64,000 nt of DNA, from NCBI RefSeq assembly GCF_964213995.1, contig NW_027590140.1:558001-622000 (forward strand), given 5' to 3'. This document shows, piece after piece, positions 33,697 to 39,436 of the stretch. Made by a program: the position numbers and the translations under genes. Within the stretch, counting starts at the first letter, position 1. Each line of letters opens with the position of its first letter. Source of the DNA: Mustelus asterias (Eukaryota). The notes beneath the pieces were generated by a model that made no database searches, had not been told where the DNA came from, and was given only the letters and a program-made list of their open reading frames with translations.

Positions 33697-33735
33697 GGTT
33701 TCTGGGCAGCTCTCTCCGTGTTCTGTATCACTGTG
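33697..33735 (-). other. Duplicate (distal) 23-RSS of the supporting V-delta
   Basis: CACAGTG 33735-33729, 23 bp ATACAGAACACGGAGAGAGCTGC, CCAGAAACC 33705-33697. A 61-bp tandem copy of the proximal RSS. Confidence 0.85.
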
Positions 33736-33757
33736 TCTGTAATCCTCACTATGTTCA

Positions 33758-33796
33758 GGTTTCTGTACAGCTCTCTCCGTGTTCTGTGTCACTGTG
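33758..33796 (-). other. Proximal 23-RSS of the supporting V-delta
   Basis: CACAGTG 33796-33790, 23 bp ACACAGAACACGGAGAGAGCTGT, ACAGAAACC 33766-33758. Confidence 0.92.
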
Positions 33797-34102
33797 CTGT
33801 GCGCTCACTCAATGCACAGTAATAAACAGCGGAGTCGCTCAGTTGTACTTTGAAGATCTCTAGCCGGCTGATTTTGACTGAAGAATGGCCATAAATGGAA
33901 ATTCTGCCCCCGGGAGTGTTTTCTTTATTCTCCGCTCCTGATGTGTGAGTCTGAAGCAGGTACTTCGGAGCCTGTCCTGGGGACTGACGATACCAGTGTA
34001 CTGTGTACTGACAGATTCCTGAATATTCACAGATTAGAGTAACCGTGTCACCGACAGTAGAGGTTTGGAGAAGTGAACTTGGTGACACAGATGAGCTGGA
34101 AC
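33797..34102 (-). CDS. NAR-TCR supporting TCR-delta V segment (leaderless, intact)
   Basis: CCTGCAG acceptor, phase 1: (G)SSSSVSPSSLLQTSTVGDTVTLICEYSGICQYTVHWYRQSPGQAPKYLL..LSDSAVYYCALSER. Canonical C/W/C plus an extra CDR1 Cys. Lies directly downstream of the NAR-type J. Confidence 0.9.
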
Positions 34103-37118: not shown

Positions 37119-38483
37119 ATAGACATTATTGATTACTTATTTTCTCCGGAATGCAAGAAATTCAATCTGATAATAAGATACATAAGAAATAGACACATGG
37201 TAGACCAATCCAACTTGAGGGCCCGCTGTACAATTCAAGAAGTTTAGTTCTGATCGTCTACCTTAATGCTAACCTATTCCCAAATCCATTCATACCATTA
37301 GTATTCAAAAATAAAATCTATGGAACGGTTCAGCACTCTCAGCCTCGACACAACCCAATCCCTGAAGGATTGATTATGCTTCAATGAGCACAATGCCATG
37401 TTTTTGAAATCGAGAAAAAATAATGCAAACAGATTGGTCCACCGTTGTCTTTCAATATGTGTAAGAGAATGCAATTCACACCTTTTACAATTCTGTCAAA
37501 GCAGAAATGATTGTTGATAGGAAGAAAATAAAAATCCGATAGAATATAATTATTTTAGTCACTGATTGTGCAAGAATGAAATGCCAGATTCAACTATAAA
37601 ATGATCTCTTGAAGCTATTTGCGTCATGTTCCCCTTTCCCTGACGCGGCAGGTAAAGGACCAGCCGCTGCAATATTGGGTTATCTCTCCCGGTATCTTAT
37701 CCACATTTCCTGGAGCAGAGAGAAATCCTGCGCCCGGTGACTCCGCTCTCTTCCAGTGGAGAGCAGGGAGCAGAGTTCGGAGTGTCTACAATATGCTTTT
37801 TATTCATTCATGAGACATGGGCAGCATCGCTGGCTGGCTGCCCATCCCTAGTTACCCAGGGGCAGTTGAGAGTCAACCACATTGCTGTGGCTCTGCAGTC
37901 ACATGCGCGCCGGACCAGGTAATCACGACAGATTTCCTTCCCTGAAACACATTAGTGAAGCAGATGGGTTTTTCGAACAACCGAGAATGGTTTCATGATC
38001 TTCAGTAGATTCTTGATTCCAGATACTTATATTGAATTGAAATTCCACCACCTGCCCTCGCGGGATTCACAGAACTTTAGCTGTGTTTTTGAATGAATAG
38101 TCCAGCGATAATTCCACTTCGCCACCGCCTCCCCTAATGTGCGCTCATTGAAAGCAGTATGGAGAGTGAGAGTGCAGGCTGTTATGAAGATCACCCGATA
38201 CCTCCCTTAAACCAATAATGGTCCAGGAGGGGTCAGCTGAATCTTCTTCCCCGTAGGATACTTGTCATTTGGGGTCTCACACTGCTTCAATCCGTTCTCA
38301 CAGCCAAACCCGAGTTCAGTTTATTACCATGTTCCCAAGTCTAAATCTGCAATTGAGAATCTTCCTCTGGAACCCACCCTGCTTTTGAAGCAGAGCATTG
38401 AAGTAATACTAAAAACGAATATAAACTGACGGTGAACACTAACCTGGACAGTCTGTAACACGGAGTGATTTGGAGTCACTTAC

Positions 38484-38536
38484 CGGCTGTGACAGTCACC
38501 ACAGTCCCAGACCCATCTGCAAATCTCCATTCTCCC
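38484..38536 (-). CDS. NAR-TCR J segment
   Basis: GEWRFADGSGTVVTVTA + G, then a GTAAGT donor (phase 1, in frame with the supporting-V acceptor at 34102). IgNAR-like xGxGT motif. Confidence 0.9.
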
Positions 38537-38575
38537 CACAGTGACACCGCTCTCAGTCAGCCCAATACAAGAATG
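38537..38575 (+). other. 23-RSS of the NAR-TCR J
   Basis: CACAGTG 38537-38543, 23 bp ACACCGCTCTCAGTCAGCCCAAT, ACAAGAATG 38567-38575. Confidence 0.85.
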
Positions 38576-38903
38576 ACTGACACCTCAAACTAACAGCCAG
38601 CATTACCGGACACTCAGCGTTTCTCAATTATTCACGGGACTGGGGTCAATAATGAACATAGATTGCATCAAAAAAATAATTGAATCACACTGTCCTTTGT
38701 GATTCTCTGAGCTCCTGGGAAAATAGAACAAGGGCAGAGATGCAAGGTTATTATTAACGGAGAAAAACCTTAAAGAATGAGAACTGATCGGAGGAAATTA
38801 CACTGAAATTAAACCAGGTTGAATTGGGAATAACATCATCCTGACAGCTTAAGTTACCTAAGCTGGGAATTGCTGGGAGTTACTGGGGGTTTTTTTGTCC
38901 TTG

Positions 38904-38931
38904 GGTATTTGTCCTTCTCCATTCCATTGTG
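38904..38931 (-). other. 12-RSS at the 3' end of the NAR-TCR V
   Basis: CACAATG 38931-38925, 12 bp GAATGGAGAAGG, ACAAATACC 38912-38904. Confidence 0.88.
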
Positions 38932-39222
38932 GTGTCCTCTGTGTGTAGTACCAGTACTGAGCTTTACAGTAATAGGTGGCTGTGTCTTCAACTCTCATGT
39001 CCTGAATTTCCAGTGAAAATTTCTTTTCTCCTTTTGTCACCGACACAACAAATCTCCCTCCGCTGGAGATCTGCTCCCGCTCTGTCCCTTTCTGGGTTTG
39101 TCTGAAAAAATGACCAGTTTCTAAATCATAAACTCCATGTAAAACACAGGTGATGGTGAGAGACTGACACTCCTTCCTGGTCACGGCTGTCGGACTCTGT
39201 GTCACTGACTGACTGAACGATC
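38932..39222 (-). CDS. NAR-TCR V segment (IgNAR-like V domain), intact, extended 3' end
   Basis: TTTCCAG acceptor, then QSVTQSPTAVTRKECQSLTITCVLHGVYDLETGHFFRQTQKGTEREQISSGGRFVVSVTKGEKKFSLEIQDMRVEDTATYYCKAQYWYYTQRT. Shows the IgNAR-type CDR2 deletion (E.IS.GGR), YYCKA, and an extra FR1 Cys. Confidence 0.92.
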
Positions 39223-39363: not shown

Positions 39364-39406
39364 GCGATAAATAGACACACACACTGAAAACAAGGAGGAC
39401 TCTCAT
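39364..39406 (-). CDS. Leader exon of the NAR-TCR V
   Basis: ATG at 39406, MRVLLVFSVCVYLS + C, GTGAGT donor. 43 nt, phase 1, in frame with the V exon. Confidence 0.9.
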
Positions 39407-39430: not shown

Positions 39431-39436
39431 TTTATA
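39431..39436 (-). promoter_or_regulatory. Candidate TATA box of the NAR-TCR V promoter
   Basis: TATAAA about 25-30 bp upstream of the leader ATG. Confidence 0.5.

Follow-up and report, generated by a model that had tools for sequence, protein, structure and literature searches.

A NAR-TCR cassette of the shark Mustelus asterias with V and D apparently fused in the germline

The cassette in the window

We analyzed a 64,000-nucleotide (nt) stretch of DNA from Mustelus asterias (contig NW_027590140.1 of assembly GCF_964213995.1, positions 558,001 to 622,000 of the forward strand), hereafter the window. On its minus strand lies a cassette of NAR-TCR, a T cell receptor (TCR) chain of cartilaginous fish. 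Its parts are given below, with recombination signal sequences (RSSs) named by spacer length; cassettes of this short layout are called joined, and sister cassettes that keep a separate D segment are called split.

39431..39436, minus strand: TATA-like box, assigned by sequence and lying 30 nt before the ATG of the leader
39364..39406, minus strand: leader exon, 43 nt, from the ATG to a GT donor, splicing in frame to the V exon
38942..39222, minus strand: V-encoded part of the NAR-TCR V exon, terminating in CKAQYWYYT
38932..38941, minus strand: 10-nt joint, attributed to what is left of the 3' end of a D segment, with about 2 nt unaccounted for
38904..38931, minus strand: 12-RSS, CACAATG-12-ACAAATACC, which its sequence and the alignment of split and joined copies identify as homologous to the 3' RSS of D
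38904..38943, minus strand: overlapping cryptic 24-spacer RSS, with a CACAGAG heptamer (38943) and its nonamer in common with the 12-RSS
38576..38903, minus strand: spacer, 328 nt, homologue of the split-cassette D-J spacer, free of D by alignment and RSS scan
38537..38575, read on the plus strand: J 23-RSS, CACAGTG-23-ACAAGAATG
38484..38536, minus strand: NAR-TCR J segment (GEWRFADGSGTVVTVTA) with a GT donor

An earlier note on this DNA had reported that, after YYCKA, the germline frame continues as QYWYYTQRT (28 nt after the Ala codon) into a 12-RSS, and the minus-strand sequence agrees: from the Cys codon at 38968 the frame runs on to 38932 and is followed by a heptamer at 38931-38925 and a nonamer at 38912-38904. 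RSSs were scored by the number of mismatches to the RSS consensus. The element is the sole 12-spacer RSS with no more than two mismatches in the 64 kb (200 shuffles gave 0.035 per window), and the remaining V ends that we found in the window have spacers of 22-24 nt, as the note had said. It had also found no RSS-flanked D between V and J, and a relaxed scan of 38541-38935 (up to six mismatches, spacers of 11-13 and 21-26 nt) likewise found no RSS pair able to flank a D. A candidate 12-RSS nonamer at 38769 was rejected, as it lacks a heptamer. The nonamer region is partly repeated in tandem at 38900-38886, giving a second nonamer-like site at a spacing of 26 nt from the 38931 heptamer. The motif of the TATA-like box precedes the leader in 12/12 joined copies inspected.

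The assignment to NAR-TCR rests on several marks. The best relatives of the V in the PDB are shark VNARs (E 2.5e-19), and the gene carries an MRVLL... leader, an additional Cys within the a-b loop (in RKECQS) and the sequence GHFFRQ, without the WYRK Trp. These marks, together with the features of the supporting V, are those given for NAR-TCR in the available text of PMC1845163. The closest named proteins are shark gene models (Mustelus asterias, 81-84%; Carcharodon carcharias, 78%); the RefSeq models span V to J by predicted introns and are uninformative on real junctions. An IgNAR cluster, in which V, several D and J segments are followed by IgNAR constant exons, was considered and rejected, because the J leads to a supporting TCR-delta V amid TCR V genes. 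C-delta lies outside the window. The supporting V is on the same strand, 4.4 kb downstream of the J, and no leader-like exon was found for it within 700 nt.

33797..34102, minus strand: supporting TCR-delta V, open frame, with a CDR1 (first complementarity-determining region) Cys (GICQY) and an acceptor in phase with the J donor
33697..33796, minus strand: two tandem 23-RSSs behind the supporting V (heptamers at 33796 and 33735)

The tandem 23-RSSs are 61 nt apart, and the same arrangement stands behind most supporting Vs in the set L071-L085. In the accessible parts of three papers on NAR-TCR, the doubly rearranging TCR-delta of cartilaginous fish (PMC1845163, PMC12227049, PMC6795676), the chain has, as here, an IgNAR-like V with the leader, the a-b loop Cys and no WYRK Trp, its own J, and a downstream leaderless supporting V-delta with a CDR1 Cys. 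Unlike the window cassette, where V and D appear prefused and a single join remains, it is described there as VDJ-rearranged. The separate RSS-flanked D between V and J is absent here, the D being apparently fused, and is present in the split sister cassettes.

Split sister cassettes and the make-up of the joint

DNA searches of the shark's own genome yielded both layouts. The first search (40 of 83 candidates scored) returned 35 places that match the window cassette end to end in the short layout and 5 that match in two pieces; these 5, with 10 more from a second search (33/33 scored), are the split cassettes. Their layout is V-22RSS, about 400-420 nt, 12RSS-D-12RSS with a D of 13-19 nt, roughly 370 nt, and 22/23RSS-J. 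When 7 joined and 4 split copies were aligned, the only gap lay between the V end and the D, and the alignment picked up again at the D 3' RSS and continued through spacer and J. The joined form thus lacks the V-22RSS, the V-D spacer and the D 5' 12-RSS, and retains the whole V end, about 8 nt of D, the D 3' 12-RSS, the D-J spacer and the J. Since the sister cassettes carry a D, the ordinary layout has one, and the joined family is the form without the V-D interval; a V ending in a 12-RSS is therefore not universal among the paralogues, a point on which the earlier note had made its proposal depend. The comparison supports a germline V-D fusion that left the D 3' 12-RSS in place.

We then asked what the 28 nt after the Ala codon are made of. 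In split cassettes, V terminates at a distance of 25-27 nt from the Cys codon; three of these V genes finish with DYWYY and others with QYWYW, and a bamboo shark protein (P0005) reads CKARYWYYT into a split-type RSS. Because V ends in both sharks encode this aromatic core, QYWYYT is, on these sequences, V-encoded; the earlier view that the join itself produced the YWYY core has to be given up. A normal V end accounts for 16-18 of the 28 extra nt, and if a 27-nt V end is assumed, 10 nt are left over. In three joined subfamilies those 10 nt include an unbroken run of 7 nt that also occurs in the 3' half of a real D (chance probability 0.012, with 8 distinct D sequences compared); the match has drifted to 5 nt in the window copy and in a dead subfamily. 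The heptamer position lies 37 nt from the Cys codon in 35/35 joined copies. The joint, which is old, would then consist of a whole V, a D trimmed at its 5' side and about 2 nt extra (at most 2-4 unexplained), with no clear P nucleotides. We regard a RAG coding joint as its likely origin. Germline-joined shark light chains have been judged by the same criteria, namely, complete excision of the RSSs and processed coding ends (PMC2193156, in the text available).

One further cassette, L060 (G000:C110:85062-85432), carries an independent, single-copy V-D join made of a whole V end, the last 9 nt of a D (from TGGGAC on) and a 12-RSS. This join, which may be germline or somatic, has flanks 99.2-99.7% identical to those of its split twins L055 and L057, which sit beside it. 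Having the same build as the joined family, this join lends support to the fusion proposed for that family.

Copy number, inheritance and signs of selection

The junction pattern occurs at 35 places in the genome (control, 0), a count of places that may include alleles or false duplicates. In a tree built from the D-RSS-to-J region, the 35 joined copies form one clade against 16 others with support of 100/100, comprising four subfamilies of 6, 12, 16 and 1 copies. The two live subfamilies are only 67-70% identical in the spacer. Three joined and three split copies lie together on the 20-Mb contig C71, and the remaining copies are on smaller contigs, several of which are identical. Joined cassettes also occur in pairs that face each other convergently at distances of 8-11 kb, at G000:C71:16069854-16081649 and on 11 other contigs; one member of a pair is live-type and the other dead-type, and each has its supporting V.

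The same junction was recovered from other organisms. In organism C (run X6), one contig (58 differences, 5 gaps) spans 38350-38988, and another links the J to the junction with 325 letters between; both have a depth of about 20, equal to that of the spacer bins, and two subfamilies are represented. Organism B (run X3) gave one contig over 38905-39029, and no junction-bridging piece was among those listed for run X2. An ENA protein, P0002, continues across this junction and the RSS as YWYYTHGTPQWNGEGQIPK. The evidence for the taxonomic range comes from organisms B and C and from P0002. Given 35 diverged copies in one clade and the junction in a contig of another organism, the V-D join is, by this comparison, inherited and old, and not a somatic rearrangement, an outcome that the earlier note had allowed for. 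In P0002, the CDR1 resembles that of the split FYGGF family and the 3' end is that of the joined family, a mosaic that may possibly reflect V exon exchange. Run X6 also contained a NAR-TCR V-D-J in fully joined form (window positions 38521 to 38955, 39 letters between), whose depth of 69.5 is about three times that of the spacer; this is possibly a multicopy germline VDJ of organism C.

Several features are consistent with maintained function. An ATG leader, an uninterrupted reading frame, the J donor and CAC in each of the two heptamers are all kept in 15/35 copies, belonging to two old subfamilies, and both heptamer CACs are kept in 18/35. In the dead (third) subfamily, the CAC of the 12-RSS is lost and the leader test failed in 16/16 (6 inspected). 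Comparisons between live subfamilies gave ratios of nonsynonymous to synonymous substitution (dN/dS) of 0.32, 0.44 and 0.31 (P of 0.003 to 0.005 for the first), and identity between them is 90% in the V exon and 89% in the J with its RSS versus 69% in the spacer (P of 5e-5). The window copy against the dead subfamily gave 0.94. L001 against L013 gave 0.63, and comparisons within subfamilies gave 0.54 and 1.39, from few sites.

Standing of the proposed fusion and its alternatives

We favor, at a probability of about 0.65, an intact-looking NAR-TCR cassette with V and D fused in the germline, likely by RAG, that is completed by one 12/23 join to its own J. RAG in an ancestral germ cell would have joined V to D, leaving the D 3' 12-RSS, and the fused cassette would afterwards have been copied into at least four subfamilies. 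Of the earlier proposal that a germline RAG event fused V to D, the fusion carrying a D 3' 12-RSS thus stands, on the split sisters, the flank alignment, the 7-nt D match and the multicopy, shared form; RAG as the agent is inferred. In thymocytes, RAG would pair the 12-RSS with the J 23-RSS, deleting 0.4 kb, and the completed exon would splice to the supporting V-delta, itself rearranged to TCR-delta D-J. TCR-delta D 5' and J signals are of the 12 type, which makes the cassette's own J its natural partner. The N-terminal half of the resulting CDR3, KAQYWYYT, would be fixed, with the D remnant protecting it against trimming, and diversity would arise at one junction, not two. An innate-like role for the joined family is speculation. 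More tentatively, germ-cell RAG may have prejoined the tip domain, with selection keeping and amplifying a NAR-TCR lineage that is semi-invariant, has an aromatic loop and predates one speciation or more, and the cassettes may be a continuing germline target of RAG, given the other V-D, D-J, V-D-J and signal joints in the locus.

Several observations weigh against this proposal. The age of the joint means that no P or N nucleotide in it can be proved. The V-side tree (59 rows) recovered the subfamilies and not a common joined clade. V exchange may inflate V conservation, and a dead-versus-live comparison, L024/L007, also gave a dN/dS of 0.35. The heptamer and nonamer of the 12-RSS are kept at 14/16 positions versus 221/322 in the spacer, a difference that is not significant (P of 0.16), and the J 23-RSS has a perfect heptamer with three mismatches in its nonamer. 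None of 34 J matches is a copy rearranged from V-D to J, all being unrearranged places. Single-copy RAG products were found in 6/21 split-family cassettes (8 decayed or truncated loci excluded) and in 0/18 RSS-intact joined copies (P of 0.02), a comparison weakened by unequal RSS numbers and by the uncertain origin of the single-copy products. Run X1, with 7% of words and a nature as RNA that is only guessed, covers NAR-TCR V and holds one V-J joint with 27 letters between; 38905-38941 is uncovered in it, and it is evidence neither way.

The lack of rearranged joined copies and the imperfect J nonamer could also mean that the fusion was inherited but that rearrangement of the family seldom or never happens, which would make it a passenger multiplied along with segmental duplications and held back by weak RSSs or by unproductive inversion between the 12-RSS and the 23-RSS of the supporting V. 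An inversion of this kind is present in the split cassette L058/L059, and 20/35 copies fail the intactness test. We consider such a passenger unlikely, as it would not account for the dN/dS values of 0.31 to 0.44, for the conservation of J and RSS over spacer between live subfamilies, or for the 15 intact copies in two old subfamilies.

Distinctly unlikely is a RAG-independent deletion of the V-D interval, from inside the V heptamer to inside D, with later function as in the proposed fusion. CAC stands at position 25 after the Cys codon in 35/35 copies, exactly where 25-nt V ends carry their heptamer, but 27-nt V ends in ACA (L068) give an identical CAC at 25 and leave only 2 nt unexplained. 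Both breakpoints, moreover, fall on RAG cut sites or no more than about 8 nt away from them, and these RSSs are rich in RAG products. The nested CACAGAG RSS might also serve as a 23-type signal, so that V joins J directly or a 12-RSS D elsewhere. It has one mismatch each in heptamer and nonamer and a spacer of 24, but the heptamer is present in only 5/35 joined copies, the others having at least two mismatches; the heptamer is probably drift within an ACACA run, and its use is very improbable. That V-12RSS/23RSS-J without a D is the original arrangement, with no split stage before it, is hardly credible: in this genome the joined clade equals or exceeds the split families in depth, but a D-like 7-mer, a D-type RSS and a D-type spacer lie behind the V, and V ends of other sharks read into split-type 22/23 RSSs. 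A somatic lymphocyte rearrangement or assembly error, which could be suspected because the assembly holds single-copy RAG products with near-identical unrearranged twins and because shark thymocytes have many partial rearrangements (PMC2435157, in the portion available), is refuted by a junction whose flanks diverge down to 67-69% identity and which recurs in contigs of another organism.

Turning to parallels of the germline V-D fusion, it is well established that RAG has made VD-J joins in the germline at shark IgH (PMC5192425, PMC2193156). These papers describe VD-J IgH clusters and joined NS4 light chains that, like the cassette, have lost the coding-end RSSs and the spacer and kept the remaining RSS, and that are inherited and attributed to germ-cell RAG. 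Marsupial TCR-mu V-mu-j is also a germline-joined V in a three-domain TCR (PMC7615758 and PMC3457774, as far as their accessible text goes); in that gene it is the supporting V that is completely joined, and retrotransposition was probably involved, whereas here the V of the antigen-binding tip is half joined, with its leader intron and a live-looking RSS kept. The newt Pleurodeles waltl has an inherited joined TRD V-J that, unlike the partial shark cassette known from DNA, is described in the available part of PMC12698447 as fully joined, fixed and expressed. TCR-mu and the newt gene were the only germline-joined TCRs found in this partly accessible literature. The search found no report of a germline-joined NAR-TCR, the primary NAR-TCR papers and supplements being outside its reach, so that a prior mention is possible.

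With V and D prefused, a T cell would need one cut-and-join, a shortcut that the literature available to us shows in shark antibody genes and rarely in TCRs. No new mechanism is involved, and use of the joined family by T cells is an inference from DNA. A half-joined NAR-TCR family that is old, amplified and under purifying selection would extend germ-cell recombination to shark TCR genes. It would also offer a defined, low-diversity subset for finding the ligands of NAR-TCR, which are given as unknown in the accessible text of PMC7615758.

Other recombination products are scattered among the NAR-TCR cassettes. In L052 (G000:C110:113697-114468), on the same contig as L060 and 28 kb from it, the V coding end is fused to the J RSS, the D interval is inverted, and the V RSS and a foreign 12-RSS form a perfect signal joint. 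The inversion in L058/L059 (G000:C122:392713-398928; split twin, L047) runs between a NAR D 3' 12-RSS and a supporting V 23-RSS, with a perfect signal joint at one end and, at the other, a fusion of D with the end of the supporting V in reversed orientation. L048 (C173), L061 (C90) and L067 (C119) each hold a different single-copy D-J join; the filler of L061 is GC-rich, and the tree places no split cassette close to L061 or L067 as a twin. The assembly may contain lymphocyte DNA. Finally, L062-L066 form a decayed NAR-TCR family, in which the usual arrangement of spacers is reversed: the J of L062 has a 12-spacer RSS, and the 22/23 spacer belongs to an upstream element.
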